Shown here one piece after another: positions 2,057 to 63,816 of a stretch of 64,000 bases of DNA. Source of the DNA: a virus; the IMG/VR virus record IMGVR_UViG_3300033489_000003, positions 1 to 64,000 of that record, one strand, 5' to 3'. A model generated the notes under the pieces. It was not told the origin of the DNA. It did not search any database and worked only from the letters and a program-made list of their open reading frames with translations. Numbering within the stretch: the stretch's first letter is position 1; every line of letters begins with the position of its first letter. The position numbers and the translations under genes were made by a program.

Positions 2057-2066
2057 AAGCAGACGG

Positions 2067-2517
2067 GGCAGGCAAGGTAGGGCCCGGCGGGGCATGGCTT
2101 GGCATGTTCAGGCGCGGCGTGGCAGGCAAGGCAGGCGCGGCCAGGCACGGTTCGGTTGGGCAAGGCTCGGTCCGGTATGGCATGGCAAGGCAGGCATGGT
2201 TCGGCGCGGCAGGGTGCGGCCCGGCTAGGTGCGGCTCGGCGCGACAGGGCAAGGCAGGCGTGGCACGGTTCGGCCCGGTGCGGCGGCGCTTGTCCGGGCA
2301 CGGCGAGGCTTGGCATGGTTGGGCGTGGCAGGCGCGGCTGGGCACGGTTAGGCACGGCGTGGCGTGGTTTGGTGCGGCATGGCAGGCGTGGCACGGCTGG
2401 GCAGGGCCCGGCGAGTCGCGTCCGGGCAGGTCTCGGTTTGGCGCGGCAGGCTAGGCTAGGCGCGGCCGGGTTCGGTTCGGCCTGGCGAGGTATGGCTGGT
2501 CGGGACAGGGCAGGCGT
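2067..2517 (+). repeat. GGY-NN pentamer array divided by GGCA tetramers (putative guide-RNA array)
   Basis: Manual parse: 83 pentamers, 74 starting GGC/GGT; GGCA delimiters at 2067, 2121, 2130, 2189, 2253, 2327, 2381, 2445, 2509. Confidence 0.93.
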
Positions 2518-11320: not shown

Positions 11321-11556
11321 TGATGGGCCCCGGTTGCTACGAGGACCCGCACCGCGATCCCGATCGCGAGTTCGCGTCGCAGCAGCTATCGCACCATCAG
11401 TACGCCGTCGAGGACGCGAAGAAAGCGCTCGAAGAAATCGAAGACCCGGCGCTCAAGGCGCTGGCGAATCGCGTCATCGCGTCGAGCTCTAAAGAAGTCG
11501 TCACGTTGGCGAAGTGGCTGGCGAAGCGTTGGGCACAACCGGACGAAGACAAGTAG
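11320..11556 (+). CDS. hypothetical protein
   Basis: Coupled ORF. Confidence 0.5.
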   Translation: MMGPGCYEDPHRDPDREFASQQLSHHQYAVEDAKKALEEIEDPALKALANRVIASSSKEVVTLAKWLAKRWAQPDEDK

Positions 11557-11621
11557 CGAGCGCCGACAAGGCGCATCTCCACCGCTCTCGCGAGCGACAT
11601 CGCGAGTAGGAGAGTAGCAAA

Positions 11622-12359
11622 ATGGCTGATGAAACGAACGGCGCTCCGGCGTCGACCGGTACGGCTGCGCCCGCGGCAGCGACAGATACGGCGACGAATG
11701 GTGTCACGCCGCCAGCGGCAACACCGCCCGCCGCAGCGGCTCCCGCTGCAACGCCAGCGCCCGTCGGTATCAACTCCGAGCAGCTCACCGCTCGGCTCCG
11801 TGAAGCGGAGGCCAACGGCGTCAAGAAACTGCTGAAAGAGCTCGGGTTCGAGAAGCCGTCGGACGTCAAGGCGATCCTCAAGATCGCCAAGGACCAACAG
11901 GACGCCGACCTCACGGACAAGCAGCGCATAGAGAAAGAGCGCGACGAGCTGAAGCCGAAGGCCAGCAAGGCCGACGCGCTTGAGTTGCTCGTCAGCGCGA
12001 TGGTCGAAGAGCAGTTCACCGGATTGCCGGAAGCCGCCAAGACTGCGATCGACGAAGTCGCCAAGGGCGATGCGCAAGAGCGGCTCCGCATGATGCAGGT
12101 GATGCGCAAGGCGGGCTTTCTGAACGGCGCTGCCGCTTCGGTCGCGGCACCCGTTGCTGGCACGAACGGAGCAGCTGCGCCGGTCGCGAAGCCAGCACCG
12201 GTAACGACCGCTCCGCCGGCCAACGCGCCGAAGCCCGGCGGCGTCCGCACGAAGTGGGACGAGTATCTCGACATCAAGAAGAGAAACGACACCCAAGGCG
12301 CGATCTTCTACCAGACGCACGCCATCGACATCGAGCAATCCAGACCAGCGACGCAGTAG
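11622..12359 (+). CDS. putative capsid scaffolding protein
   Basis: Ala/Pro-rich ends and coiled-coil core; directly precedes the major capsid gene. Confidence 0.65.
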   Translation: MADETNGAPASTGTAAPAAATDTATNGVTPPAATPPAAAAPAATPAPVGINSEQLTARLREAEANGVKKLLKELGFEKPSDVKAILKIAKDQQDADLTDKQRIEKERDELKPKASKADALELLVSAMVEEQFTGLPEAAKTAIDEVAKGDAQERLRMMQVMRKAGFLNGAAASVAAPVAGTNGAAAPVAKPAPVTTAPPANAPKPGGVRTKWDEYLDIKKRNDTQGAIFYQTHAIDIEQSRPATQ

Positions 12360-12424
12360 CGAACGAACCCCGTTCTCCTGCCGTCGGTTGACATCGTCGC
12401 AACCCGAACAACGAGGACAGCCAT

Positions 12425-13582
12425 ATGCCGTCAATCAACAGGGGAACACTCCCTTCCAATTACGTCGACTTCTTGGAGTCGACCATGTCGCCAATGCGGC
12501 TCACGACTCCAGAGCCGCAATACTTCTTTGCGCGCATGGCACTTGGCGCTCGCATGAGCCTCCAGGCGATGGCCGTTGGTGCGCCGAACCTCCGCTCGTT
12601 TGCCATGCAAGGCGCGGCGGGTGCGGAGCTGCCGTCGGATCTCGACGAGCTCGTCCGGGCCGGCGATGCATACCCGGGCGCCGTCAAAGCGGTTGACGAC
12701 TACGGCAAGGGCAAGGGCGACACGATCAAGTTTGATCGCGATCTCTACCTGGCCACCGGCGGCGCGTTCACGAAGGCGGGCCGAAAGCTTGCCACGGACG
12801 CAGCCATCTCGGTGTCGGGTCAACTCATTCAGAACGAAGAAGTACCGATCGTGCTCGAAGAGTACATCGGCCCAGGCGCTGCCGACGATACCGTCAAGCC
12901 GTACGAGATTTGGGGCTTTGACAACAAGTTCCGCGCGGCCAAGGAAAGCTTGGTCAGCAAGGTTACGCGCTACCACAAACGCGACTACGTGAAGTGGCTC
13001 GACACCGTCATTCGCGATCAGTTCCGCGAGACCGCCAACATCACGTACTCGGACGACGTTACGAACGCGTTGTCGTTTACGGCAGGCGCCGGCCACGTCG
13101 CGAACCTCGAGATGATCATGGCCGCCCGCAAGGCGCTCAGCGATCGCGAGTGGCAGCCATTCCCCAACGGCCGCTACATGCTGCTCGTGCCGACGAAGTT
13201 CAACGTCGACATGATCCAGGACCCCGACTACCGCGAGCTGTCGCACACGCACCGCGACGGGCGAAACCAGCTGTTCGGCTACATCGCCAGCGTGCAGGAC
13301 GTCGACATCTTCGAGGTGTCGACCCTGAAGACGCACGCCGCAGGCACCACCGTTCCGGATGACGGGCAGGTCGTGCCTGCTGGCGTGACGGTGCAGGAAG
13401 CTCTTCTGTTCGGACCTGGCGCCGTCGGGTTCGGCACCGCGGAAGACGAGACCACCAAGTCGCCGATGATTCGATTCGCCGACGACACCAACTACCAGAC
13501 GGTTGCGAAGACGATCTGGTACGCGCTGCACGCCTTCACGGCGCTCGATACACGCGGCGTTCAACGCATCCTGTTCCAGTAA
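12425..13582 (+). CDS. major capsid protein
   Basis: 385 aa; KGKGDTIKF, ALLFGPGAVG and DDTNYQ...IWY typical of HK97-fold capsids; synteny. Confidence 0.8.
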   Translation: MPSINRGTLPSNYVDFLESTMSPMRLTTPEPQYFFARMALGARMSLQAMAVGAPNLRSFAMQGAAGAELPSDLDELVRAGDAYPGAVKAVDDYGKGKGDTIKFDRDLYLATGGAFTKAGRKLATDAAISVSGQLIQNEEVPIVLEEYIGPGAADDTVKPYEIWGFDNKFRAAKESLVSKVTRYHKRDYVKWLDTVIRDQFRETANITYSDDVTNALSFTAGAGHVANLEMIMAARKALSDREWQPFPNGRYMLLVPTKFNVDMIQDPDYRELSHTHRDGRNQLFGYIASVQDVDIFEVSTLKTHAAGTTVPDDGQVVPAGVTVQEALLFGPGAVGFGTAEDETTKSPMIRFADDTNYQTVAKTIWYALHAFTALDTRGVQRILFQ

Positions 13583-48977: not shown

Positions 48978-49202
48978 TCAGCCGCCTTCGCCTTCGGGTG
49001 AGGGCGGCTTTTTTGCGTTTGGTGCTTCGAGTGCTGCGCGCATCATGTCGGCGGCGCCGGCTTGGCCAACGGCCTCGACGTTTCGGATCCACTGCGCGAT
49101 CGCCGTTCGGAAGCGCTCGGTTTCTTCGCGGAGACTGTCGATCTCCGCGCGCAAGTGCGCCGGCCCTTTGCGAAACATCGCGTACCATTCCTCGTCGTTC
49201 AT
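48978..49202 (-). CDS. hypothetical protein
   Basis: MNDEEWYAM..., ATGA-coupled. Confidence 0.45.
   Translation of the reverse strand: MNDEEWYAMFRKGPAHLRAEIDSLREETERFRTAIAQWIRNVEAVGQAGAADMMRAALEAPNAKKPPSPEGEGG
48980..49014 (+). terminator. rho-independent terminator
   Basis: AGCCGCCTTCGCC-TTCG-GGTGAGGGCGGCT followed by a T run. Confidence 0.7.
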
Positions 49203-49432: not shown

Positions 49433-50152
49433 TTACCGCAACCGACGCAGCTCGACCGCGTAGTATCGCCGTTCCCACTCCGCCCGCCCATGTCCGTCGC
49501 CGCGCCGCCCGCCTAGCGAAGCAACGCGAATGCGCGTCGCGTCTAGCTGCCCACCGAGCGAGCACGCGTAGGCCGGATGGATCGGCAGGTCGTGCTCGAC
49601 GAGATACGCGAACACGTCGAGCCCGGACCACCACCCGATGGGCGCGCACGTGGACGCGCTGGACTCGCCGTATGCGCGCATCCGCGCCTTGCGTTGCCCG
49701 CTCTCGTCGGCGCGTACGCCGCTCACGTGAGCAGCGCCGAAGCGTTGCGCCGCTTCAGCGAAGCCACGCTCAAGCGTGCCCGTAGCATGCCAGCCGTCTT
49801 CGTCGCGGATGCACTGGCTCACGATCTCGTGATAGTTTGAGCTCGGGTACGTTTGAAAAAAAGCGTCTCGCACGAGCGAGCAATCAGGGTTGCAGATAGG
49901 CTCAACGCGGATCCAAACGACAGGCACCTCCGCCGCAAGCCCGGACACCATGTGAGCGATCACGACCGAGTCCTTCCCCCAACTGACACCCGCGTAGCAT
50001 CGCGTCCTAGCTACGAATTCGGCGACAGCCGCGCGCGCCCTATCTACGTGACGACGGTAGAGCGACAACGACGCGTGGGCTCGCGCTGTCCTCTCAACTA
50101 TCTCCCACGCCGCAAGGTCATCTGGCGTGTGCCGCGGTGACGCAATCAGCAC
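49433..50152 (-). CDS. cysH: CysH/PAPS-reductase-like protein of type IV-B loci
   Basis: GVSWGKDS PP-loop; GVRADES..R; PIGWWSGLDVFAYL...LPIHPAY. Confidence 0.85.
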   Translation of the reverse strand: MLIASPRHTPDDLAAWEIVERTARAHASLSLYRRHVDRARAAVAEFVARTRCYAGVSWGKDSVVIAHMVSGLAAEVPVVWIRVEPICNPDCSLVRDAFFQTYPSSNYHEIVSQCIRDEDGWHATGTLERGFAEAAQRFGAAHVSGVRADESGQRKARMRAYGESSASTCAPIGWWSGLDVFAYLVEHDLPIHPAYACSLGGQLDATRIRVASLGGRRGDGHGRAEWERRYYAVELRRLR

Positions 50153-50613
50153 GGTCGCCACGCACCGAAAACGCTCTCGGCTAGCCTTTCGTGTTTGCGC
50201 CATTCGCCAAACCCAAACCGCTGCATCTCGTCCCACGTGGCAGATCGTGTCCAGCCTGTGTGAAGTCGATGGGCGGCGACAACGGCGCCTGTCCTATGCG
50301 ACCCTTTCCAACAATGCACGAGCGTTCCACGCACAAGAAGCGATAGCACGTTGAGCGCTGGTAATCCCAGATGCTCATCGATCGGAAATCGAACGTACTC
50401 AACGCCAAGCTTTGCGTAGGTGCTTGAGGCCAGCAGTTGGCGAGGATTGTCTCTGAGGTCGACGACGCGACGGATTGCGTTATGAGTCAATGCCAGCTTC
50501 AATTCTCCGGCGGAATACTTTCCGGATCGGAACAGCCCGCGGTCGAATTCTGCGAACCTGCGCAAGCTCGTCAGCCCGGCACCGCGCAAAGCTGCTCTCG
50601 CGAATGCATCCAA
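50146..50613 (-). CDS. tyrosine/dual-specificity phosphatase-like protein (start uncertain)
   Basis: LFRSG, VVDLR and P-loop HCWKGSHRTG. Confidence 0.8.
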   Translation of the reverse strand: MDAFARAALRGAGLTSLRRFAEFDRGLFRSGKYSAGELKLALTHNAIRRVVDLRDNPRQLLASSTYAKLGVEYVRFPIDEHLGLPALNVLSLLVRGTLVHCWKGSHRTGAVVAAHRLHTGWTRSATWDEMQRFGFGEWRKHERLAESVFGAWRPC

Positions 50614-51218
50614 TACGGAAACGTGATCGTTGCATACGCGAGCGGAGGATCCTCTAAACCTGGCCAGTCCGCCGGCAACGCGCGCAGTGGCTTACCATCT
50701 CGGACGACTGGAAACCCGTCTCCCCACGACTCATACGGGTCCACGGCCCACTCGCGAACCCTTCCGCGCCCGGTTGAACGCTTGTGCCCAAGGTAGCGAA
50801 CGAGAGTGAGCAGATCGCGAATGGCGTCAGCGTCACCCATGGCGAACCACTCAACCTCGTCGCGCTCTGCCCACGCTACTTCGCTCGGCAAGCGGTACGA
50901 CTTCGTTGGCCCTGCCGATAACAGAATCCGTCTGAACTTCGTTGCGCCCATTGCCTGCGCTTCGGCAAGCGGGAACTTGCGGTTGACGTATCGCAGCTCG
51001 TGCTGGTCGAATTTAGGCGTAGCGAACGAGCACAGGTGAAACCTACCGCAGGGCTCCTTCGTAACCGGGATCTCGATGTCGGCGAGTTCGCCGAATCCTG
51101 GCGGTGGCAGTTGATCGCGCTGTGCCACGGCCCACGCGAGCAGACCATCTAGGCGTAACGACCCGTCCCGTAGCGAGATGGGGCCATCTAGCCGCGCCGT
51201 GATTCGAAGCGGAGTCAC
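50571..51218 (-). CDS. csf3: Csf3 (Cas5-like RAMP)
   Basis: PLRITARL...LDGLLA; LGHKRSTGRGRV..W. Confidence 0.85.
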   Translation of the reverse strand: MTPLRITARLDGPISLRDGSLRLDGLLAWAVAQRDQLPPPGFGELADIEIPVTKEPCGRFHLCSFATPKFDQHELRYVNRKFPLAEAQAMGATKFRRILLSAGPTKSYRLPSEVAWAERDEVEWFAMGDADAIRDLLTLVRYLGHKRSTGRGRVREWAVDPYESWGDGFPVVRDGKPLRALPADWPGLEDPPLAYATITFPYWMHSREQLCAVPG

Positions 51219-52198
51219 GCATTCACCGTAGCGAGAAACTCTTTGATGCGCGCCGCCCTGGCTTGAACGTGCGACCTGAACATGGTCCCAGTCTTCGCGG
51301 CAAGATCCGTCGTGTCCATGGGGTGTAGCCTATCAGCCGGCGCACTTACGGCAACGCCCTTGGCCATAATGGCGCGGAGTAGCCCATGCCCTGTTCCTCG
51401 CTTTCCGCCGACGCGCGCGTTGGCAAGCATTGCTGCCACCGTAGTGGAGAAAACGTCGACATCGAGATCGTTGTAGAGCGTGGCCTCGACTCCCCAAGAG
51501 AAAAGCGAGCCTGACGCGACGCGTTCGAACGTGCGGGGCAACATCGTACTCTTCGTTGCCTCCCGCGCCGTTGCGATGTCGGTATCGTGCGCGGCTTCGC
51601 TCTGCAAGAGTCGGTTCTCCGCATCGGAAGCGGCGCCAGCAGATAGGAGCTTACGCTTGCCTGGGTCGAGCGTTGGGTCCATGCGCACGCGCTGCTCTAG
51701 TTCCATGTGCGCGCGTGACGTGTCGAACTGACCTACGTGATCAACGATCCACTTTGGCAAAAGGTGCTTTGACTCCGCGCAAACCAGCAACGCGTCCTCC
51801 ACGACGAGTCGCCCAGGGATGACGCGATTGCCTGCGCACCCGCCCAGCAGCGACAGGGACGGCACGAGATCACACATCTCTCGATAGGTGTCGAGTTTGA
51901 TGGTGCTGGCGTCACCACGTCCAGTGATCATTCCGCCAGCAAAGAGAAGGCGGAGAGCGGCCTCCGACAGCGACGGGTCGGCCAGCAGCCCAGCGGCGTC
52001 GAGAAACGCGTACGCGATGGCCTCACGGCAAGCGTGGCGCATCGTGTCCGACGTCACGCACGCCACTTGCGCCCACGCACCATCAGGCATGCGGATCTTG
52101 CGACGGAACGCGACGGCGCTGTTCCCGTGCACTTCAGAGTGGTGCGCTATTGGCGTTGCCGCCTCCAGCAAAAACTCAAACCGTTTGATCTCGTGCAT
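51215..52198 (-). CDS. csf2: Csf2 (Cas7-like RAMP)
   Basis: ATPIAH, MRHACR, LFAGG, PSLSLLGG, VGGKRGTGHG; AAGGAGG RBS. Confidence 0.88.
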   Translation of the reverse strand: MHEIKRFEFLLEAATPIAHHSEVHGNSAVAFRRKIRMPDGAWAQVACVTSDTMRHACREAIAYAFLDAAGLLADPSLSEAALRLLFAGGMITGRGDASTIKLDTYREMCDLVPSLSLLGGCAGNRVIPGRLVVEDALLVCAESKHLLPKWIVDHVGQFDTSRAHMELEQRVRMDPTLDPGKRKLLSAGAASDAENRLLQSEAAHDTDIATAREATKSTMLPRTFERVASGSLFSWGVEATLYNDLDVDVFSTTVAAMLANARVGGKRGTGHGLLRAIMAKGVAVSAPADRLHPMDTTDLAAKTGTMFRSHVQARAARIKEFLATVNA

Positions 52199-52559
52199 CT
52201 CTAGCCTCCTTACGTTCTTCGGCAATCTTTCTAGTCAAAACCAACAGGAACGCGTATTCCCGCTCGATAAGGTCCAGCCACTCACTTGCGCACCCGCGCT
52301 CGTGCACGAGGTGCGTCAGTTGGAGTAATGATGTCGAATAGCGAACACTGGGCGCCGACAGTTGGAGCTGTCTTGCGATCATCGTCGCCCACTCCTCCGG
52401 ACCCGACGACATCCGCGCCGCCGCTCTCATTCTGTCCTGCAACTGCTCCCAATGTTTCAGCACGTTCACGTGCGGCGTCGACAGGTATGCCGCTCGGATC
52501 TCGAGCAGCACGTCTACCGTCGCGCTTCGGAGTTGCTCCTTCACCTTTTCTTCTATCAC
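52176..52559 (-). CDS. Cas11-like small subunit
   Basis: 127-aa helical protein with WEQLQDRMRAAA; AAGGAGG RBS; between csf1 and csf2. Confidence 0.68.
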   Translation of the reverse strand: MIEEKVKEQLRSATVDVLLEIRAAYLSTPHVNVLKHWEQLQDRMRAAARMSSGPEEWATMIARQLQLSAPSVRYSTSLLQLTHLVHERGCASEWLDLIEREYAFLLVLTRKIAEERKEARDARDQTV

Positions 52560-53286
52560 GCTGAGCCTCCTTCTTTGCGGCCCGCGCCGCCTTCTCTTCT
52601 TCCATTCGTTTGGCGACCGTTTCTTCATCTCGTTGCGCCAGCCATAGCGCGAGCGCGAACCACGGCGAGCGGCGCTTGTCCGACCAGTTCTCCTCGAAAC
52701 GGCGAATCTCTTCGGCGCACCGTTGGTATGAGCCCTGTCCGTACTCACCGCGCTCCACTTCTTCTTTCGTCGCGCCAGCCGTAAGCAACGTCGTCATTCG
52801 ATCGACAAGCGTCCACCCGGACGCATGATCGATCGGAATCGTTACGAGCGTCTCCTCGAACATGATGGCGCCTCGCCGTGTATTTGGCGGGTTCACTGGC
52901 GTCCAAGGAATCACGTGTTTTTGGCCGCTGTCAGCAATAGCTGCGAACCACGGCCCCTCTTTCGGCGCACGCAGCCACGCGCGCATCTCCGGCTTGTTTC
53001 CCTTGTTGAACTTGAGCACGCATCGATCATCTACGAGCCACGAATACATGCGCATCGTATCCGGCGGTCGGCCGGCCATCACGTGGACGCATGAAGCGCA
53101 AACATGTGCGCTGGACGGCGACCGAACGCGTGACTGACCGACGAACGTACTGCCTAGCCACCGCTCCACCGGAACACCGAACACGCTCGATCCGGCGCAG
53201 ACCCAGCAATGTTCAGCGGCATGCTCTACAGCGTCGGCGACCTTCGCCCCGCCGAGACGGTCGCTCAAAAGTTGAGAGGCCATCAT
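52282..53286 (-). CDS. csf1: Csf1 (Cas8-like large subunit)
   Basis: CWVC...VCASC Zn finger; GQKHVIPWTPVN. Confidence 0.8.
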   Translation of the reverse strand: MMASQLLSDRLGGAKVADAVEHAAEHCWVCAGSSVFGVPVERWLGSTFVGQSRVRSPSSAHVCASCVHVMAGRPPDTMRMYSWLVDDRCVLKFNKGNKPEMRAWLRAPKEGPWFAAIADSGQKHVIPWTPVNPPNTRRGAIMFEETLVTIPIDHASGWTLVDRMTTLLTAGATKEEVERGEYGQGSYQRCAEEIRRFEENWSDKRRSPWFALALWLAQRDEETVAKRMEEEKAARAAKKEAQRDRRKGEGATPKRDGRRAARDPSGIPVDAARERAETLGAVAGQNESGGADVVGSGGVGDDDRKTAPTVGAQCSLFDIITPTDAPRARARVRK

Positions 53287-54230
53287 CACAGCATCATGTC
53301 CGTTATTATGACACGACCGCACCCGAATGCCGTTCTGCCTCCGAATCCAATCCTAGCCGCCGCCTCGAGCAGCCACCGCGAAACCGCGTTCACCTCAAGC
53401 ACGAGCGATCCGCTCCACCCACGCACGGGCCCATACTTACCACCGAATGGTATCGTTTCCGGATGCGTGTCCTGTGACACGATCTCAACGCAGATCCTCT
53501 TGGCGACATAGCGCGCCCACTCCTCTGACGGGGCGAGTCGTCGAACGAACTCAACACCGATCGCGCTTGCTATGTTGACGGCGCCAGGTCGAACGCATTC
53601 CGACGCACCACCGCCCGAGCGAATGACGATCGGAGTGATGGCGTCGAGCCGAACCAGCTGCCGCCCGCGCCTTTGGATCGCAGGTGATCGAAAGCGCCAC
53701 GCCGGTCCAAACGTTAGCGTAGTCGGCCGGTCGAACAACGGAACGTGTACCGACTTTCCTGCTAGCTTCATTCCTTCCTGTCTGAACCAGTGTACTCCCC
53801 ATCCGGATCCATGCGGGACGAGAGAGAAGTTTGGAATACGCGGCACGTGGCCGGCGCCGAGTACAGCCGTAAGCGCGCCATGAAGAGCGGGCGAGTTTCT
53901 TAGTTCGATGGGCCAACGCGGCAACGGTGAATAGTGCACCGTCATGGCGCATCCCGGAAGGTGGACATGGTATGGAGGAGCGCCGGCAAGCCAATGGTTT
54001 TGGCGCGTGCAGTTTCTGTTCCTCCTCGCCCACGCTTCGCACCGAAGCCTTACGGCAAGCGTTTCGCCAATCGGTCGGCGTCGCTCTCTAGTCTGTTCGC
54101 GAGCGCTGTCTAGCGTGCGTTTGCGTTTGCTCCTACAGGCTTCAGAGCACGTCGCCGCGTTCGCGCACAGTTTCCGGAACGTTGACCCGCATTGAACGCA
54201 CCAAGCTTGCCTTATTGAGGACAACGGCAT
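53286..54230 (-). CDS. Cas6-like RAMP with N-terminal Zn finger
   Basis: LHGAL, ITPIVIR, GWSGSL and C-terminal GFGGRTAFGCGRV G-loop; N-terminal CVQC...CSEAC. Confidence 0.78.
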   Translation of the reverse strand: MPLSSIRQAWCVQCGSTFRKLCANAATCSEACRSKRKRTLDSAREQTRERRRPIGETLAVRLRCEAWARRNRNCTRQNHWLAGAPPYHVHLPGCAMTVHYSPLPRWPIELRNSPALHGALTAVLGAGHVPRIPNFSLVPHGSGWGVHWFRQEGMKLAGKSVHVPLFDRPTTLTFGPAWRFRSPAIQRRGRQLVRLDAITPIVIRSGGGASECVRPGAVNIASAIGVEFVRRLAPSEEWARYVAKRICVEIVSQDTHPETIPFGGKYGPVRGWSGSLVLEVNAVSRWLLEAAARIGFGGRTAFGCGRVIITDMML

Positions 54231-54232
54231 TG

Positions 54233-54529
54233 CTACTCTCTCCTCCTGTAACGCTCAACACATCTAACGCAGCTCGGCACGTTGGCGCTCGTCACCGTGT
54301 GCGCCGGCTTGCTGCAAAAATAGCATTCGAAGATTCCACGCTGCTTACGTGTGCCGTCGAGTTGTTCGCCAGTCTCCGGCTTGCGCCGCGGCGTCGCAGC
54401 TTGCTGCGTGATTGACACCGGTTCGTTGGCGTTATCCCAAACGAGCATGCCCACCGGAAACATCACCCCGACCTCCCGCATGTCGGACACCGCGCGATCA
54501 ATCCCATCAGCCGCGCGTGCGTTTTGCAC
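54233..54529 (-). CDS. hypothetical Zn-finger protein
   Basis: CYFC...CVRC; start uncertain. Confidence 0.45.
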   Translation of the reverse strand: MQNARAADGIDRAVSDMREVGVMFPVGMLVWDNANEPVSITQQAATPRRKPETGEQLDGTRKQRGIFECYFCSKPAHTVTSANVPSCVRCVERYRRRE

Positions 54530-54556: not shown

Positions 54557-55750
54557 TCACGAAGCATTGTCTGCCTCGCTACGGCTTCTCGGTTCAACGA
54601 GGCGCTTACAGCTCGCCCCTCCCCGATCGCGGTGCCCCCGCGATTGTACGTTCTTGGCAGCGTTGACGTCGCGGTCCAGTACGAGTCCGCAATGCGGACA
54701 GTCGTGGACGCGAACGCTTAGGCTCTTGCGAACCGTAGCGCCGCAACCGCTGCATTCTTGTGATGTGCCGCGTGGTTCCACCTTGATGAACTCGCGTCCG
54801 GCGCTTTCAGCCTTGTACGCGAGAATCCTGATGAATTGTGCCCATCCGGCGTCGTGAACTTGTTTGGCTAGGCGCATCTGCGCCAAACCTTTGATGCTGA
54901 GATTTTCGACGGCGACCGAATCGAAACGGGCGACGATGCCGCGCGCCGCCTTGTGGTGGAAGTCGAGCCGAGCTCGCCTGACGCGGTCGTGTTGCTTCGC
55001 TAGCAACACAACCGCTTTGCGACGCCGACGCGAACCGCGTTTGCGGCGAGTGACCTTACGGTCAGCCGTTTTGAGCAATTGTAACGCGGACTCGTAGCGC
55101 CTTGGATTCTCAACAGTCTCGCCGGTGCTCAGAGCGGCGAAAGTGGTGACGCCAACGTCGATGCCAACGCTGGCGCCTGTTGCCGTTAGATGTTCGACGC
55201 GGACGTTGTCGCACACGAAAGTCACATACCAGTGGCCGTCTCCGGCGAGCGTGACGCGGACTTGCTTGACCGTGCCTACGATCGGGCGATGCAGCTTAAC
55301 CTTGACCTTGCCGATGCAAGACAGTTCCACCTTGGTTCCGCCAGCAACAAGGCGAGCGCCGTTGCGATTTATCGCGTCACGGAACGTGAAAGTGCGGTAG
55401 CGCCCACGCCCCTTGAACCGTGGAAACCCAGGAGTCTCGCCGGCCTTGCAGCGACGGAAGAACGCACGGTAGGCGCGGTCGAGACGCGTGATAGCGTCCT
55501 GGAGCAGGTGGACGTGAATGCCAGTGTACTCTGGCCGTACAACGCGAACTTCCTTCAGCTCAAGCTGCTGTTGGTACTCGGAAATGGATCGCCCCTGCTT
55601 CTTGTAAGCGTCTCTTCGCTCCTGTAGAGCAGCGTTGTATAGTTCACACAGTAGGCGCATCGTTTCTCGCAAGCGCGCCTCTTGGGCCCGCGTAGGATAG
55701 ATACGATAGCGATAGGCGCGGATCACAGCGCCATCCTTGACTCTACTCAT
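54557..55750 (-). CDS. tnpB: RNA-guided endonuclease TnpB (IS200/IS605 family)
   Basis: AYRYRIYPT, GFPRFK, GIDVG, VAVENL, TSQECSGCG, CPHCG, DRDVNAAKN. Confidence 0.95.
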   Translation of the reverse strand: MSRVKDGAVIRAYRYRIYPTRAQEARLRETMRLLCELYNAALQERRDAYKKQGRSISEYQQQLELKEVRVVRPEYTGIHVHLLQDAITRLDRAYRAFFRRCKAGETPGFPRFKGRGRYRTFTFRDAINRNGARLVAGGTKVELSCIGKVKVKLHRPIVGTVKQVRVTLAGDGHWYVTFVCDNVRVEHLTATGASVGIDVGVTTFAALSTGETVENPRRYESALQLLKTADRKVTRRKRGSRRRRKAVVLLAKQHDRVRRARLDFHHKAARGIVARFDSVAVENLSIKGLAQMRLAKQVHDAGWAQFIRILAYKAESAGREFIKVEPRGTSQECSGCGATVRKSLSVRVHDCPHCGLVLDRDVNAAKNVQSRGHRDRGGASCKRLVEPRSRSEADNAS

Positions 55751-56547: not shown

Positions 56548-56858
56548 AGCGCGTTTCCGGTCCTTCGCTCAGCTTCGACGCAGCAGTCGAAAAAAAGATC
56601 AACGTCACGCACTCCGCATTTCTTTAGCTCGCGCGCAGCGGCGGCAAAACAGACGCGATGCGCCTTATGTACATCACCGCCCTTCTCAAAGCCCAAGGCG
56701 CCAACCATGCACGCCAACTCGGCGGTAATGCGGGCCGATCGGTAAACGTCCAGTGCGCGCTGGAATAGTTTGTCTTTCAACATCACCGCTGCTTCTTTTG
56801 TAGTGGCCGGGGGCAACCGGACGCGTCGCAGACTCTTTGGACTAAATTTCTTGATCAT
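56544..56858 (-). CDS. hypothetical protein
   Basis: Coupled ORF. Confidence 0.5.
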   Translation of the reverse strand: MIKKFSPKSLRRVRLPPATTKEAAVMLKDKLFQRALDVYRSARITAELACMVGALGFEKGGDVHKAHRVCFAAAARELKKCGVRDVDLFFDCCVEAERRTGNAL

Positions 56859-57370
56859 TCGCTCGCGCTTCCTTTCGCGCCTTCGGCTATCCACGTCGTG
56901 ATGAGCCTCATTTCTTCCTCCTGCCAATAGGGTGAACCCTTGGGCATCCGGTTGGATCCGAATTGTCCGCGAAGCGCTTGCACGATCGCCGACTCGTCGG
57001 GCTTGCCAGGAACGATGATGCGAGTACCGGTAGAGCCGCCGCCTTGGCGGAGCTCGCCCAGCGTGGTCACGTCAAAGCCAGACAGCGCCGTTCCTGTCGA
57101 ATTGGTCACTCCGCGAAGGTGACACGGCGCGCAGCCGCGTCCGACTCCCATGGCGGTCGCCTGGTCCTTTGTTCGCATGATGATGGGCCGGATATCCAGC
57201 GCGAAGCTCACGGTCCCCGGTGGCTCATCGTCGTCGCCATCCACGGCGTCCTCCGCCGCGCCAGCGTCACCAACGTCAACCGGCTCAACGTAGAGCCGGC
57301 CCACGTTGGGGTCGAGTTCGGAGCAGCCCACCATCACGATCGCGATCACTGCGATTCTTGAGCTTTTCAT
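56855..57370 (-). CDS. lipoprotein with planctomycete-type cytochrome c domain
   Basis: Lipobox MVGC; SFALDIRPI, CAPCH, IVPGKPDES, RMP, WIAEGA. Confidence 0.78.
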   Translation of the reverse strand: MKSSRIAVIAIVMVGCSELDPNVGRLYVEPVDVGDAGAAEDAVDGDDDEPPGTVSFALDIRPIIMRTKDQATAMGVGRGCAPCHLRGVTNSTGTALSGFDVTTLGELRQGGGSTGTRIIVPGKPDESAIVQALRGQFGSNRMPKGSPYWQEEEMRLITTWIAEGAKGSASE

Positions 57371-57897
57371 GGCGTCACCGTTTCACATCCCGCCGGCCGC
57401 GTCGACGGGCATCCGTAGCCATTGCGGCACGCCTCCGCGATGTCCTCGCTCGTCAGGCAGTTGAGCGACGCGTCGCTGCCCTTTGGCGCCATGATGGCGC
57501 GCTCGTCACTCACGTGCTCAAGCCCCATCGCGTGACCGAGCTCGTGCGCGAACACGATTCGAAGCGGGTCGCCGTGGAGCTTGTCCATCAGAATCACGAT
57601 CTTCGTCGGCTCGAGCGGGCTGTGTACGCGTGCCGCCACGCCCGTCGTGTGGTCTCGGAAGTAACGGTCGATGTTGCTGGCGCCGCGCGAGTTGCTTCGG
57701 ATGATCATGTTTCGGTCGCTGGCAACGTCGGAGAACCCGATGCCGAAGATGAGATCGCGGTGCAGCCCGGTCGGCGCCCACAGAGCAGCGCCGACGCGGA
57801 TCTGCTCTGCTTCTTCTGGCGTGAATCGTTGATCAACATAATACAACTCTCCAAAACACGCCGTGCATAGCACCGACAGCAACGCCGCGCTCGACAT
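57367..57897 (-). CDS. matrixin-like zinc metallopeptidase
   Basis: HELGHAMGLEH plus Met-turn AIM. Confidence 0.8.
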   Translation of the reverse strand: MSSAALLSVLCTACFGELYYVDQRFTPEEAEQIRVGAALWAPTGLHRDLIFGIGFSDVASDRNMIIRSNSRGASNIDRYFRDHTTGVAARVHSPLEPTKIVILMDKLHGDPLRIVFAHELGHAMGLEHVSDERAIMAPKGSDASLNCLTSEDIAEACRNGYGCPSTRPAGCETVTP

Positions 57898-57911
57898 GCG
57901 CGTCGCGCTGC

Positions 57912-58763
57912 TTACGGGAACTGCGCGCACGACATCTCTGCGTACGGGATTGTGTCGTTGTCGTTGTACGCCGTGACCGATAGCCACCAGCTTCCTTGCG
58001 CGGCGTAAATCTGCACCAAGGCATCGTCCAGGTTGCCCTGGAGCAGCGTAAGACCGCAAAACGTACGGGCCGTGCTAGGGCCTCTCGTCGTTTGACCAGG
58101 TCCAGCAGAAAAGACGCGCCAAATGTTGAACGGGCGGTTCGGGTGCAAACACTTGACCCATGCGGCGAGCGCTGGCGTACCGAACGCGCGCAGCTTCCAC
58201 ATGTTCACGACAGGATCGATGGATACGTACTCAAGCGTGGTTTCATCGTCCCCGCCGGCCGACATGCCACTTACGCCGGTTATCCAGCAGAAATTGTCAG
58301 GGTACGAAAACAGGTCGATCTGCTGATCTACATGACCCGAGCCGGCACCCTGCGGCCAATAGAGCTGGAAAGGATTCGTGTCTGACGAGCCGAATGCTCC
58401 AGCGGGTAGCGAGTAATTGGAGAACGACTCGCAACGTGCGCCAGCCCGTGCGAATTCACCTCCGCCATATCCGCCCTGCGGGGAAGCGACGAAGTTGCCC
58501 GGCAACACAAGCCACGTCGCACCGCTCTTCGCTACACCGTTCGGCCAATTCGCCGACCCTGCATGCGCAAGCGATGCCTGAAAATATGTCGGCCGACAGA
58601 ATCTCAGAGGAGCGGCCGGAATCGACCCGTAGCCATTCGTGGTCGCGTAGTCGATCGTCAACCCTTGCGCCTGCTCATCTGGCGCTTGGTTTAGCGTCGC
58701 CTCAGGCGCGTTACCGCACGCGGCGAGCAGGGTGACCATCAACAACATCAGACTTCGTTTCAT
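57912..58763 (-). CDS. Cys-containing lipoprotein (paralogue of 46716-47516)
   Basis: Lipobox LAAC; GNLDD motif. Confidence 0.7.
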   Translation of the reverse strand: MKRSLMLLMVTLLAACGNAPEATLNQAPDEQAQGLTIDYATTNGYGSIPAAPLRFCRPTYFQASLAHAGSANWPNGVAKSGATWLVLPGNFVASPQGGYGGGEFARAGARCESFSNYSLPAGAFGSSDTNPFQLYWPQGAGSGHVDQQIDLFSYPDNFCWITGVSGMSAGGDDETTLEYVSIDPVVNMWKLRAFGTPALAAWVKCLHPNRPFNIWRVFSAGPGQTTRGPSTARTFCGLTLLQGNLDDALVQIYAAQGSWWLSVTAYNDNDTIPYAEMSCAQFP

Positions 58764-59131: not shown

Positions 59132-59412
59132 CGTGCGCCTCCGTCTCGGAGTTCGAAGACGCACCCGCAGCCGTCGTAGACGCGATAGATGGCAGACGAT
59201 GCGCCGCGCTCTCGGCAGCGAGAGACGCAGCCGGCCATGGCGCCGTCTTGGTAACTAGGGCCGGGGTTGCAGCCGGCGAGGAGTAGCGAGGCGCCGCTAG
59301 CCAACACGAATTGGCTTGTTTTGCGCCATTTCACCAGTGCAAAGGCGCGTAGTATCTCACTTATTCTTTGGCACGCAGACTCCAAGGGTGTGCTTTCCCG
59401 CGCAAGCTTCAT
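59128..59412 (-). CDS. hypothetical lipoprotein-like protein
   Basis: LLLAGC; coupled ORF. Confidence 0.45.
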   Translation of the reverse strand: MKLARESTPLESACQRISEILRAFALVKWRKTSQFVLASGASLLLAGCNPGPSYQDGAMAGCVSRCRERGASSAIYRVYDGCGCVFELRDGGAR

Positions 59413-60878
59413 AGCCGCTCATCTCCCGCGATCTCTTCAGCCGATCGCCATTCTACCACCGGATCGCGATCTCGCTCGATTCGTACCGCGTGCGCTAGCT
59501 CATGAAGCGCCGCGCGCTGCACCTGTCGGTCGGCCCTTTTCCAAATCGTCTTGATGTTCTCGATCCGCAAGAGCGCCTCACGCCGAAGACCTGCGTTCTC
59601 GAGCGGCGACGGCCTGGCTTGCTGAGCCGCCTTCGACTCCAACCGCGTCCGCGCCTCGTCGACCTTGGCCAAGGATGCGACCAGCTCAGCCTTGGTCATT
59701 CCCGCGTCTGAGAACGCCTCCAGGAATCGCTCGCGCTTCTTCTGGAGTCTGACCCGCTCCGCCACGAAGTCGACCGTCTTAGCCGGCTTCTGTGGCTCTG
59801 GCCCACGGCCCAACTCGTCGCGCAGTTCCACAAGCCGAGCCAGCGTCATGTCAGCCACCAATGGGTCGAAGTGTTTGACCTGCATGTAGTGGGACCCTGG
59901 GCAGGCGCGATGGCACCGGTAATAGTAAGTGTAGTTCTTGGCGCCAGTGTAGAAGCCGCCGCCGTAGGATGCGCCAAGCCTTGCTCCGCATCTTCCGCAC
60001 CGCCCGATCTCACGAAGCAGCCAGTCCTTGGTGCGGGACCCCGCCTGCGGCGCCGCACCGACGAGGCGCCGAGAATCAAGAGCTGCCTGCGCGCGCGCGA
60101 AGACATCCGCGTCGATGAGCGGCTCGTGCATGCCCTTGATCCAAACGCCGCGCGTATCTTTCGTCTCGCCGAGGTAGATGCGGTGACGCAGCGTCTTGTT
60201 GACGAGCTTCTTGTCCCAGCCACGATGACGATAGGTCTTCGTGAGGTGGTCGAGAATCGTCCCGATGGCCGCGCCGCGGATGCACATCCGGTACATCTCG
60301 CGAACGATCGCTGCGCCATCGGCGTCGACGATGAGCACGTTGTGTTCGAGTCGAGAGACGCCCTTGCGCGGCGGACGCACGTAGCCGATCGGCGCGAGTC
60401 CGTCGATGTAGTAGCCGCGATCTCGCAGCAGACGTCTCGTTCCAACCGTCCGCTCTTTGATGCGCTTGTGTTCTTCCCTGGCGACGAGCACTCGAACGCC
60501 GAGCATCGTGTCACCGTCTCGGGTCGACGGGTCGCACCTGTCGCCGACGGCGTAGAACGAGACGCCAGCCTCAAGCAATCTTCTGATGCTGCCGTATGTG
60601 AACTCTGGATCGCGCGACCACCGGTCGAGCTTGTCGCACACGACGAGGTCGCCCTTGCGCGCCTCTTTGAGCAGAAGCTGGATCTGCTCTCGCTTTTCGA
60701 TCCGCTCGTAGACTGCGCTCTCGGCTTCAACATAGAACCGCGTTACCTTTAGGCCGCGTGCTTTCGCGTACGCCGAGATGGCGTCTTGCTGATCTTGGAG
60801 TGACGTTCCCCTTGCTTGATCTTCGCTGGAAACTCTCGCGTAGCCGAATACTCGGCCGACTGTTCCGGCTCCGGACAT
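59409..60878 (-). CDS. large serine recombinase (integrase)
   Basis: GYARVSS..Q, KLDRWSR, recombinase domain, CGRCG...YYRC Zn ribbon, coiled coil. Confidence 0.92.
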   Translation of the reverse strand: MSGAGTVGRVFGYARVSSEDQARGTSLQDQQDAISAYAKARGLKVTRFYVEAESAVYERIEKREQIQLLLKEARKGDLVVCDKLDRWSRDPEFTYGSIRRLLEAGVSFYAVGDRCDPSTRDGDTMLGVRVLVAREEHKRIKERTVGTRRLLRDRGYYIDGLAPIGYVRPPRKGVSRLEHNVLIVDADGAAIVREMYRMCIRGAAIGTILDHLTKTYRHRGWDKKLVNKTLRHRIYLGETKDTRGVWIKGMHEPLIDADVFARAQAALDSRRLVGAAPQAGSRTKDWLLREIGRCGRCGARLGASYGGGFYTGAKNYTYYYRCHRACPGSHYMQVKHFDPLVADMTLARLVELRDELGRGPEPQKPAKTVDFVAERVRLQKKRERFLEAFSDAGMTKAELVASLAKVDEARTRLESKAAQQARPSPLENAGLRREALLRIENIKTIWKRADRQVQRAALHELAHAVRIERDRDPVVEWRSAEEIAGDERL

Positions 60879-61370: not shown

Positions 61371-61506
61371 GGGAAGCGGGCAGGACTCGAACCTGCGACC
61401 CAAAGATCCGGTAACGATTCTCGGCCGGCCCGTCACCGGGCAAAGATGTGAGAACCGATATCCCTTGCGGGAATTCTTTTGCTCTACCGACTGAGCTACC
61501 GCTTCC
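61371..61506 (-). ncRNA. tRNA mimic 2 with expanded anticodon arm (Y-RNA-related)
   Basis: Acceptor GGAAGCG/CGCTTCC, D arm TAGCTCAGTCGGTAGAGC, T arm GCAGGTTCGAGTCCTGC; large insert replaces the anticodon loop. Confidence 0.8.
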
Positions 61507-61808: not shown

Positions 61809-63497
61809 TCAGTTTCGAGCAAAGTCGGCCATGAGGGCCGGCGCCGCAGAATCGAATCCTACGAAGTCCAACATTCCGGCATCGTTGGGATCGGCGATCG
61901 TGAACTCCGTTGCTGTCATGCCAACTACGGCTAGTTTGGCTGGTCGGCTGAGCTTCTCCCGGTACGCGCGGAGCGCCTGGAATGGATGAATCGTCCCTGC
62001 CCAAGTTTCGTTGTCCGTGTAGACCTGGAACATGTCGACCTCGATATCGGAGCCGGCTGCGTAGAGCATGGGCAATGCGCAATCGGTTCCGCCCATGGGC
62101 AGCTTTGCTATCGCGCGGATGACGTCGTCGAGGCGCTGCTTGGGGCTGATATCGATCGGCGTGAAACCCGGCGCTCCGCCGCCATGCATGCCACCGTACC
62201 CGCGTCCGTTCATCGGTGCCGTAAACCCGAATATGTGCCAGTTTTTCTCTGTGCGAGCAGTCACCATTGCCATCGCTGCGCTGGCCACGCGCGGCGTGAG
62301 ACCAGGGCAGCCAGCGATTGCGCCGCTTTCCATAGACCCTGAGACATCAAGGCCGATCAGGATGTTCTTGCCCGTCGGCTCCACCGCCTGAAACGCCAGG
62401 TAGAACGCTTCGTCGAGCGCGTCGACAATCTCCCGCGCTGGAGCCCAGGTGAGCTTGCCCTTATCCCCGTGGCCTTGCTGATAGACGCGCAGCGCCGACA
62501 GGAGCGCGATCGGGTGAACGCGCGCCTTCTTGATCCTGTCGGCGTCGGCGATCATGCCGGCCGCCAGCTTGACGTGCTCGCCCATCGGCTTGAAGAGCCC
62601 GACTGCCGTCATCTTCGCGAGGTTGCGGACCAGCGCCGTCTGCGGCATCTCTTCGAGCAGCGCTTCCCACACGTCCACCGAGTTCTTGTGCTCTGTCGGG
62701 ATCATCTCGTGGGTGAATCGATGTTGCCGGATGAGCTTCGCGGTCGTCTTCGGATCCGGCGACGCCTTGAGCTCATCGTACGCGGCGAGAAGTGCTGGCA
62801 ACGCTTCCAGCCTGCTCGGGTACTGGACTGCGCGCTCTTCCTTTCCGGCCATGCGCTTCATGCCGCGCTCGCCCATCGGGGCGCCTACGCACCAACGGAA
62901 CGCGGCGTCATGCTGCGGCGTGGGCGCCTTCGGATGCGATAGACGCAGCACGTCACGATGGGCCCAACCGTAGCGCTGTTGATACTTGAGCAGCTGCTGA
63001 GCGAGCCTGTCGGGCTCCTTCGCGGTGTACCACCGAGCAACCGCCGAGCGCAGACCTCGCCCCCACTTGCGGAAGTTCTCCACGTCACGAACGAAGTGGA
63101 ACAGGTGGGTGCCGATGCGGCAGACTTTCGGGAGAGCAGCAAGCGCAATAGCCCTTGTTTCCGGCCTGCTATCAGCGGCCGCCATCGCGAGCGCGAAGAT
63201 CGCCGGGTCGTTCTTGGGCGCGCGACCGGCGTCGGAAATCTCGACGATCCGAGCGACCGTGCGCGCCCCGTCTTCTGCGAGGCAGTCGAGGACGACTTGC
63301 GCGTTGTCGCGCGTGAGCGCCCGCTCAGAGGCGTAGTAGGTCCCGCCGTCAGCGCCCAAGATGAGCCAGCGATCAAGCCGCGCCCACTTGTCGAGCGTGA
63401 ACGCGAAGCCCCCAGCGGAGTTCTTCTTCTGGTCGCTCCGCGCAGACTCCGACTGCGGCGTCTTCAGCGTGGAAAAGTGTTGCCCATAGTTCGACAT
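61809..63497 (-). CDS. rsr: Ro60/TROVE-domain RNA-binding protein with vWA domain
   Basis: NSAGGFAF, GGTYYASE, HRDVLRLSHP, ALVRNL, RVHP, MIDAS DVSGSM, GGTDCALP, TDNETW. Confidence 0.95.
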   Translation of the reverse strand: MSNYGQHFSTLKTPQSESARSDQKKNSAGGFAFTLDKWARLDRWLILGADGGTYYASERALTRDNAQVVLDCLAEDGARTVARIVEISDAGRAPKNDPAIFALAMAAADSRPETRAIALAALPKVCRIGTHLFHFVRDVENFRKWGRGLRSAVARWYTAKEPDRLAQQLLKYQQRYGWAHRDVLRLSHPKAPTPQHDAAFRWCVGAPMGERGMKRMAGKEERAVQYPSRLEALPALLAAYDELKASPDPKTTAKLIRQHRFTHEMIPTEHKNSVDVWEALLEEMPQTALVRNLAKMTAVGLFKPMGEHVKLAAGMIADADRIKKARVHPIALLSALRVYQQGHGDKGKLTWAPAREIVDALDEAFYLAFQAVEPTGKNILIGLDVSGSMESGAIAGCPGLTPRVASAAMAMVTARTEKNWHIFGFTAPMNGRGYGGMHGGGAPGFTPIDISPKQRLDDVIRAIAKLPMGGTDCALPMLYAAGSDIEVDMFQVYTDNETWAGTIHPFQALRAYREKLSRPAKLAVVGMTATEFTIADPNDAGMLDFVGFDSAAPALMADFARN

Positions 63498-63522
63498 GTA
63501 GATGCTCCTATCTTCCGTTGCG

Positions 63523-63816
63523 TCAGCCTTCTGTACTCCCAAACCACCCAACGCCCAACCTCTTCGCCCACTCGCCAGCGGTCCGCGTCACGACGTCCGC
63601 GCCATCCTGGTCAATCTGCGCGATGTCACCGTCCTCGTCACACCACATCCCAAGCTCCTCCTCGTCCGGCCACTGCCGCCACAGCGCGTCGTCCGTCTCG
63701 TCGTAGTTGTCTCGGCATTCGCCCGTCTGCTCGAACAGCGCCGTCCACGCGTCCGCGACGTCGGCCGCGACGACGAGATCGCAGTCGGAGAACTCGAAGA
63801 CGTGGAGGGGGGTCAT
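63523..63816 (-). CDS. acidic hypothetical protein
   Basis: GGAAGG RBS; protein-like ORF. Confidence 0.55.
   Translation of the reverse strand: MTPLHVFEFSDCDLVVAADVADAWTALFEQTGECRDNYDETDDALWRQWPDEEELGMWCDEDGDIAQIDQDGADVVTRTAGEWAKRLGVGWFGSTEG

Follow-up and report, generated by a model that had tools for sequence, protein, structure and literature searches.

The virus record IMGVR_UViG_3300033489_000003 of the IMG/VR collection carries a minus-strand operon of seven genes (positions 49433-54230) that encodes the four effector subunits of a type IV-B CRISPR-Cas (short palindromic repeats, clustered and regularly interspaced, with their associated proteins) system, together with a Cas6-family protein, a cysteine-based phosphatase and a CysH-like protein. 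The window analysed here, 64,000 nucleotides long, is the first part of the record, which comprises 104,643 bp and is rated complete by CheckV; positions are those of the window. From cas6, the first gene in the direction of transcription, to cysH, the features are these:

53286-54230, minus strand: cas6, a Cas6-family protein of 314 aa (AlphaFold2 model, Foldseek, VIA, and PF10040 in homologues)
52282-53286, minus strand: csf1, the Cas8-like large subunit, 334 aa from an ATG at 53286 (TIGR03114, E 1.3e-13)
52336-52350, minus strand: QCSLF, a predicted beta-sliding-clamp-binding motif at residues 313-317 of Csf1 (translation, homologue statistics and model)
52176-52559, minus strand: cas11, the small subunit, 127 aa from a GTG at 52559, with an alternative ATG at 52628 (AlphaFold2, VIA)
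51215-52225, minus strand: csf2, the Cas7 backbone subunit, 336 aa from a TTG at 52225, with an alternative ATG at 52198 (TIGR03115, E 1.6e-6)
50571-51218, minus strand: csf3, the Cas5 subunit, 215 aa (TIGR03116, E 3.6e-15)
50146-50613, minus strand: a Cys-based phosphatase of the PTP/DSP superfamily, 147-155 aa (PF03162, E 1.2e-6)
49433-50236, minus strand: a cysH-like gene for a PP-loop protein (CasCysH, PAPS-reductase-like) of 267 aa (PF01507, E 1.1e-9)

All seven reading frames are intact and neighbouring genes overlap or abut, leaving no intergenic space: the stop codon of cas6 and the start codon of csf1 share one base in TGATG, and the start of csf3 overlaps the stop of csf2 by 4 nt. 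The operon had been proposed from the letters and open reading frames (ORFs) of the window, in what is here called the sequence-only reading; all seven genes are present at these coordinates, and each identity is backed by a profile or fold match. The gene identities are secure, and the locus is a genuine, intact type IV-B variant on a temperate phage. Type IV-B is defined as csf1-cas11-csf2-csf3 plus a cysH-like gene, without Cas6 or an array (PMC8175902). Cas6 genes in 12 type IV-B loci have been treated as rare exceptions, and type IV-B systems have been noted on prophages (Pinilla-Redondo et al. 2020, PMC7038947) and reported for archaeal viruses (PMC10848311; bioRxiv 10.1101/2023.08.02.551345). 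The presence of Cas6 makes the phage locus a variant of type IV-B, not a separate subtype. No DinG or RecD helicase, Cas10-HD or adaptation gene was found in the operon or in the neighbouring genes.

The first gene had been read as Cas6-like, and its product has a full Cas6 fold. Residues 1-87 form a CxxC...CxxxC zinc ribbon and a helical hairpin, an N-terminal part that is missing from some relatives, and residues 88-314 form a complete Cas6 domain of two RAMP (ferredoxin-like) folds with a C-terminal G-rich loop, GFGGRTAFGCGR. The AlphaFold2 (AF2) model, fed with an alignment of the 33 homologues of the family, has a mean predicted local distance difference test score (pLDDT) of 92.8. Its top Foldseek matches are all Cas6 proteins (best E 2e-8), and structure comparison with VIA gives Z 17.2 to the S. 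thermophilus Cas6 6fjw (root-mean-square deviation, rmsd, 3.8 A over 212 residues, spanning model residues 93-311 and chain residues 1-240) and Z 15.3 to the type IV Cas6 6njy, with the whole target chain covered in both cases by model residues ~88-314. The loop GFGGRTAFGCGR aligns with the Cas6 loops of 6fjw and 3pkm. PF10040 matches the phage copy weakly (E 0.006) and is matched by 28 of the 33 family members. By its modelled structure, the Cas6 fold of 53286-54230 is confirmed.

Two histidines (H117 and H128) and the G-rich loop are invariant in the alignment of 33 Cas6-family sequences; one histidine lies inside and the other just past helix alpha1 of the first RAMP domain, and several arginines are near-invariant. 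In Cas6 endoribonucleases, a catalytic histidine of the first RAMP domain serves the cleavage of a specific RNA, which is independent of metal. Given the two invariant histidines and the loop, it is plausible that the Cas6 gene implies a processed RNA substrate. In type IV-A systems, Cas6 processes the CRISPR RNA (crRNA) and stays on the complex. The fold is common to the phage protein and type IV-A Cas6/Csf5 (6NJY; complexes 7XFZ and 8RC3), but the phage Cas6 shows no special closeness to the type IV-A enzyme over those of types I and III, and type IV-A has a CRISPR array and DinG, whereas the phage locus has neither.

In Csf1, a zinc finger with four Cys residues and a conserved core are followed by a charged tail of low conservation. 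The TIGR03114 match covers residues 16-162 and is below the curated cut-off but specific. Homologues of Csf1 number 382, and in an alignment of 51 of them C27, C30, C63, C66 and Q313 are invariant. The cas11 gene is present, as had been proposed, but it has no stretch to itself and overlaps, in a different frame, with the final 278 nt of csf1. The open frame 52176-52748 overlaps csf1, and comparison with 11 related loci sets the conserved Cas11 at 52176-52559, in the +1 frame relative to csf1, with a shared stretch (52282-52559) that makes up the first 92 cas11 codons. The csf1/cas11 overlap was found at every related locus examined, with a length of ~220-280 nt in most, and EALGP, conserved in the Csf1 tail, is the shadow of the Cas11 sequence LKHWDQ. 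Sequence and profile searches of the PDB found no relatives of Cas11, nor did Foldseek. The AF2 model (pLDDT 93.1) has six helices, and the top match of a wide search with VIA is 7jhy_h, the Cas11 of a type IV-B complex (Z 10.5, with 113 of 127 residues aligned at an rmsd of 3.2 A; the match after it has Z 5.9). The identity of Cas11 is confirmed by this modelled fold.

Csf2 has as its best solved relative 7jhy_e, the Csf2 of the type IV-B complex (E 2.5e-9). Together, Csf1, Cas11, Csf2 and Csf3 constitute the subunit set of an RNA-bound Csf filament of the 7JHY kind. The phosphatase has an active-site loop, HCWKGSHRT, that fits CX5R as read from the translation; it scores 28.6 bits with PF03162 against a cut-off of 27, and PF22785 and PF22741 match with E 1.6e-4. 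The translation of the CysH-like protein has an SWGKDS PP-loop and lacks the C-terminal ECGLH-type catalytic cysteine motif, which is the pattern given for the CasCysH of type IV-B (PMC8175902).

The Csf complex of the Mycobacterium sp. JS623 plasmid (7JHY, PMC7937560) has the same four effector genes in the same order, and chains of 7JHY give the best sequence match to the phage Csf2 and the best fold match to the phage Cas11. Both systems have a CysH-like partner with a PP-loop and no catalytic cysteine, and neither has an array, adaptation module, helicase or nuclease. The phage locus differs from that of JS623 in its additional Cas6-family and Cys-phosphatase genes, in the long tail of its Csf1, which bears the clamp motif and is encoded over cas11 in the other frame, and in its carrier, a tailed temperate phage rather than an actinobacterial plasmid.

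Viral and genome collections were scanned with alignments of Cas6 and Csf1, yielding ~110 loci, of which 86 are non-redundant (loci are denoted by L numbers). The sequence-only reading had described a phage-borne type IV-B cassette with Cas6 and phosphatase and no array, which holds, and had supposed a possibly undescribed variant; the locus is not a one-off. The cassette genes alone are common to ~90 other loci of phages or metagenome-assembled genomes (MAGs), and the cassette is therefore a mobile module, since related loci share only these genes and their flanks are unrelated. Dozens of phages with no other relationship to one another retain the gene set, at 30-60% identity; the closest protein relatives stand at 77% for Cas6 and 72% for Csf1. 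That the cassette is a decaying CRISPR-Cas remnant without present function, as its lack of an array, adaptation genes and nuclease might suggest, is highly improbable in view of the seven intact and translationally coupled frames, this conservation among unrelated phages and the high-confidence models of Cas6 and Cas11.

Within the clade nearest to this phage, the Cas6 family is present in 25 of the 42 loci with a complete core, or in 16 of 27 when the count is made over those with room on both sides, and in none of the 27 loci of more distant phage type IV-B clades. The gene occupies one of three positions: ahead of csf1, between csf3 and cysH, or past cysH. Its carriers include contigs binned to very different phyla. 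The 12 Cas6-bearing loci reported earlier (PMC7038947) likewise combine a type IV-B core and Cas6 with no array; here, Cas6 is instead common in one phage-borne clade, often with an N-terminal zinc ribbon. A 281-aa ORF upstream of csf1 in L018 was considered as a Cas6 and rejected, having no likeness to the phage Cas6 family.

The cysH-like gene is found in nearly all related cassettes. The phosphatase has 11 stand-alone homologues, a homologous domain is fused to a SpoU RNA methylase in two loci (L010 and L067), and in another (L024) a SpoU methylase stands alone at the same position between csf3 and cysH. The phosphatase is thus a member of a recurrent accessory set of phosphatases and SpoU methyltransferases. 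As far as their sequences indicate, these accessory enzymes point to work on RNA ends, which would fit an active Cas6 without proving its activity. Bacterial RNA repair by Pnkp/Hen1 combines a phosphatase with a 3'-terminal 2'-O-methyltransferase. It offers an analogy only, in that relatives of the phage locus place a phosphatase and an RNA ribose methyltransferase beside a putative RNA-cutting enzyme; the enzymes come from unrelated families (Cys-phosphatase and SPOUT in place of HD/kinase and Hen1), and this phage has the phosphatase only. A search of the phage record for genes of SpoU and of the sliding clamp, DnaN, was negative. In four non-redundant relatives a DnaN gene of their own lies no more than 8 kb from the cassette, and phage-encoded dnaN genes near the cassette include:

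L002:7549-8922, dnaN
L008:2399-3685, dnaN
L065:15525-16697, dnaN

Over the full 104.6 kb of the record, k-mer array scans, TRF and a scan for dispersed repeats of at least 14 nt gave no CRISPR array, no mini-array and no solitary repeat unit. An array outside the first 64 kb, one of the RNA sources that the sequence-only reading had suggested, is excluded for this record by these whole-record scans. The phage's own non-coding RNAs, another such candidate, are not conserved partners of the cassette, for no flanking gene or RNA is common across the loci. No conserved non-coding element was found in the 500 nt on each side of 27 loci beyond the common flanks of near-identical phages, and a search of 48-57 kb with Rfam at a permissive threshold gave matches at chance level only. 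With no conserved non-coding element accompanying the cassette and no intergenic space in the operon, the RNA partner must come from elsewhere.

In this setting, it is possible, if doubtful, that the Cas6 protein caps the complex as a structural part without catalysis, much as Cas6/Csf5 is retained in type IV-A, and that the complex assembles on abundant cellular RNA without processing it. The fold matches include type IV-A complexes (7xfz_H, Z 10.0; 8rc3_M, Z 9.7), in which Cas6 stays bound, Cas6 is absent from 40% of the related loci, and no substrate was found in cis; yet a cap would not lead one to expect two invariant histidines, several near-invariant arginines and co-occurrence with RNA-end enzymes.

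Host crRNAs are the remaining candidate of the sequence-only reading. Host pre-crRNAs or crRNAs might be captured by Cas6 and the Csf complex of the phage and serve as guides against competing elements; the idea has been discussed for type IV-B (PMC8175902), and it would suit a Cas6 that has conserved histidines and no array of its own, as well as the proximity of a few relatives to arrays (a 14-repeat array 6.5 kb away in L018; arrays or mini-arrays in L104, L109 and L107). Such guide hijacking is nonetheless unlikely. Cas6 enzymes are repeat-specific, whereas this Cas6 family occurs on contigs of very different phyla; type IV-B is negatively correlated with other CRISPR systems (Pinilla-Redondo et al., PMC7038947); the JS623 complex did not load co-expressed type I-E crRNAs (PMC8175902); and the CysH-like protein, the phosphatase and the clamp motif would be left unexplained. 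That the module is a portable effector dependent on host arrays is improbable to the same degree.

Arrays occur near a few relatives that lack Cas6, and mini-array scans of the 8-10 kb around the Cas6-bearing loci were negative for every one of them. The Myxococcales MAG locus L018 has a CRISPR-like array with ~14 copies of a 36-nt repeat directly before a phage-type dnaN and 6.5 kb upstream of csf1; a radical SAM gene replaces cysH, and no Cas6 was found there (coordinates 493-1476, 1479-2599 and 11395-12870). Two distant low-GC phage type IV-B loci with the gene order csf2-csf3-cysH-csf1, L109 (9620-11506, 11790-12100) and L104 (15352-15750), lie near arrays whose repeats end in ...GTTGAAAC or ...ATTGAAAC; their Csf1 proteins end in QLSLF, and in L109 a 629-aa TnpB/Cas12-like gene adjoins the array.

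The beta-clamp-binding consensus is QL[SD]LF, and DNA polymerase II (Pol II) ends in QLGLF. QCSLF of the phage Csf1 lies 17 residues from the C-terminus; the tails of its relatives typically have QLSLF, QLALF, QLGLF or QLDLF at the C-terminus or at most 1 residue from it, and across the 51 aligned homologues the glutamine is invariant and the consensus is QLxLF. When the pattern Q[LCVIR]x[LMIF][FL] was scored in the last 20 aa of Csf1 homologues, it was found in 58 of 120 tails, against 0.16 on average (3 at most) when the tails were shuffled 200 times, the counts being inflated by kinship, and in 7 of 1748 internal windows. The motif is lacking in an actinobacterial locus (L031) and in most distant loci. 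Its codons overlie a variable Cas11 loop that follows the LQLSA segment, and distant low-GC loci, whose csf1 comes last and shares no bases with another gene, have it too; for both reasons the motif, as judged from these sequences, is not a by-product of the overlapping cas11 frame. Neither this motif nor the overlap of csf1 with cas11 had been remarked in the sequence-only reading.

Two copies of DnaN, taken from the Xanthobacteraceae MAG in which the closest genomic relative lies, were modelled with the last 50 residues of Csf1. The model scores 0.61 against 0.02 for the best control, but many clamp-peptide structures have been solved and the pass may reflect likeness to them; among solved complexes 58 of 80 attained that mark, as did 2 of 110 mismatched pairs. 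At least 67% of contacts are common to the three runs, with a partner pLDDT of at least 44, and the model places Csf1 residues 308-321 against DnaN residues 177-182, 248-253, 326, 350-352 and 366-372, the canonical cleft. The predicted link of Csf1 to the clamp is well supported by the sequence statistics together with this model. Known clamp-binding proteins (Pol II with QLGLF, Pol IV, MutS, Hda, TnsE of Tn7 and MuC of phage Mu, PMC12867686) likewise have a short Qxx[LM]F peptide at or near the C-terminus, past a flexible linker; the phage peptide is predicted to bind in the DnaN cleft between domains II and III. Among the papers searched, none joins Csf1 with the sliding clamp and none reports a CRISPR-Cas subunit that binds the clamp.

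The plus-strand genes of the window are those of a myovirus-type virion, with a large terminase, major head protein, tail sheath and tape measure, and a minus-strand block begins at ~49 kb and includes genes for TnpB, for a large serine recombinase (59409-60878) and for an orthologue of Ro60 (61809-63551). The Csf operon is at the promoter-distal end of this block, and the module sits in the accessory or lysogeny arm of a temperate soil myophage. DNA of the record is present in three public soil-metagenome DNA runs, with no RNA run among those listed, and megablast against the INPHARED phage collection gave no match. Between the convergent plus-strand block and the Csf operon there is a likely terminator:

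48980-49009, strand unspecified: 13-bp GC-rich hairpin and T tract (terminator scan)

The position of the operon bears on the proposal, made for type IV-B in the literature (PMC7038947, PMC8175902), that the complex is an anti-CRISPR (Acr) or anti-guide sponge that sequesters host guide RNAs and so protects the phage. Binding of RNA without sequence specificity by the JS623 complex (PMC7937560) would be in keeping with such a sponge. It is quite unlikely here, for seven genes are costly in comparison with single small Acr proteins (Pinilla-Redondo et al. also judged it unlikely), the cassette is in the integrase arm of a temperate phage and not among early lytic genes, and a sponge would have no use for a clamp-binding tail, a PP-loop enzyme or a phosphatase.

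Directly upstream of cas6 and in the same orientation is an intact tnpB, separated from it by a 98-aa ORF with CxxC...CxxC (54233-54529, minus strand):

54557-55750, minus strand: TnpB, an IS200/IS605-type RNA-guided nuclease (NF040570, E 2.4e-88)

Genes for TnpB or Cas12-like proteins flank the cassette in five other loci (L006, L074, L083, L097 and L109). The copies of this phage and L006 are only 31% identical, and independent insertions of TnpB are therefore likely; TnpB probably represents the insertion of an insertion sequence (IS) rather than a core component of the cassette. Folding of a 416-nt stretch spanning the spacer between tnpB and cas6 gave z 0.41, with no special structure and no omega-RNA structure detected, and no IS end repeats are evident near tnpB. 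The Ro60 orthologue (61809-63551, minus strand) has TROVE and Ro60 vWA domains and is followed by a 134-nt tRNA-like RNA (61372-61505, minus strand) that scores 53 bits with the Rfam tRNA model, was not called by ARAGORN and is probably a Y-RNA/YrlA-like partner of Ro60. This Ro60/Y-RNA-like module (61.4-63.6 kb) was considered as the RNA partner of the Csf cassette and rejected, as it is not conserved beside related cassettes. Two genes a few kb upstream of the cassette (56855-58059, minus strand) have weak Pfam matches to PF07635 (cytochrome-c-like) and PF00413 (a matrixin-type metallopeptidase motif), which are unusual phage cargo, and in the left arm of the phage short tandem repeats rich in GGCA, whose periods are 15-29 nt, form a run (2066-2400, plus strand).

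With slightly better than even confidence, we read the locus as a functional, array-less type IV-B Csf effector module that works with RNA supplied in trans and is tethered to the sliding clamp through Csf1. The Cas6 protein would recognise, and probably cut, an RNA supplied in trans; the cassette is not accompanied by any RNA gene. The phosphatase would trim the RNA end left by Cas6, on which the fused or substituted SpoU 2'-O-methyltransferase of relatives might also act, and Csf3, Csf2 and Cas11 would assemble on that RNA. The flexible tail of Csf1 would then tether the complex to DnaN clamps loaded on DNA, either at replication forks or behind them, where the CysH-like ATP-pyrophosphatase may act on bound nucleic acid. 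The role of such a module is likely to be that of interfering with or marking replicating DNA in conflicts between prophage, host and mobile elements.

Several observations weigh against this functional, clamp-tethered module. Neither Cas6 nor the clamp motif is obligatory, since the former is absent from 40% of the relatives and the latter from about one third of the close ones, and the Mycobacterium type IV-B complex bound heterogeneous RNA without any Cas6 (PMC7937560). Catalysis by Cas6 is inferred from conserved residues only, and searches of the operon and flanks found no RNA partner for the phage Csf cassette. The interaction of clamp and peptide is a textbook one with many solved structures, and the model may pass through likeness to these; the modelled DnaN is a stand-in from the Xanthobacteraceae MAG and may not be that of the host, and QCSLF, with cysteine at position 2 and 17 residues after it, is less canonical than a C-terminal QLSLF. 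In DNA of high GC content, moreover, alternative frames remain open by chance.

A 2021 review gave the function of type IV-B as unknown (PMC8175902), and a literature search found no functional study later than the 2021 structure. For this CRISPR-Cas subtype without known function, the phage locus and its relatives give three handles: a dedicated Cas6 means that a specific RNA can be sought; the RNA-end enzymes (the phosphatase, and the SpoU methyltransferase in relatives) suggest a chemically finished RNA; and the clamp-binding peptide on the large subunit suggests work on replicating DNA. A bolder and only tentative proposal is that the type IV-B complexes of phages are replication-coupled, RNA-guided machines, in which the RNA would be processed by Cas6, modified at its end and taken up by the Csf filament, the tail of Csf1 would ride the clamp, and the CysH-like enzyme would chemically modify DNA or RNA at replication forks. 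If this is true, type IV-B would be assigned a function, its complex would be the first among CRISPR effectors to be recruited through the clamp of the replisome, and mobile elements would gain a sequence-directed way to mark or block replicating rivals.

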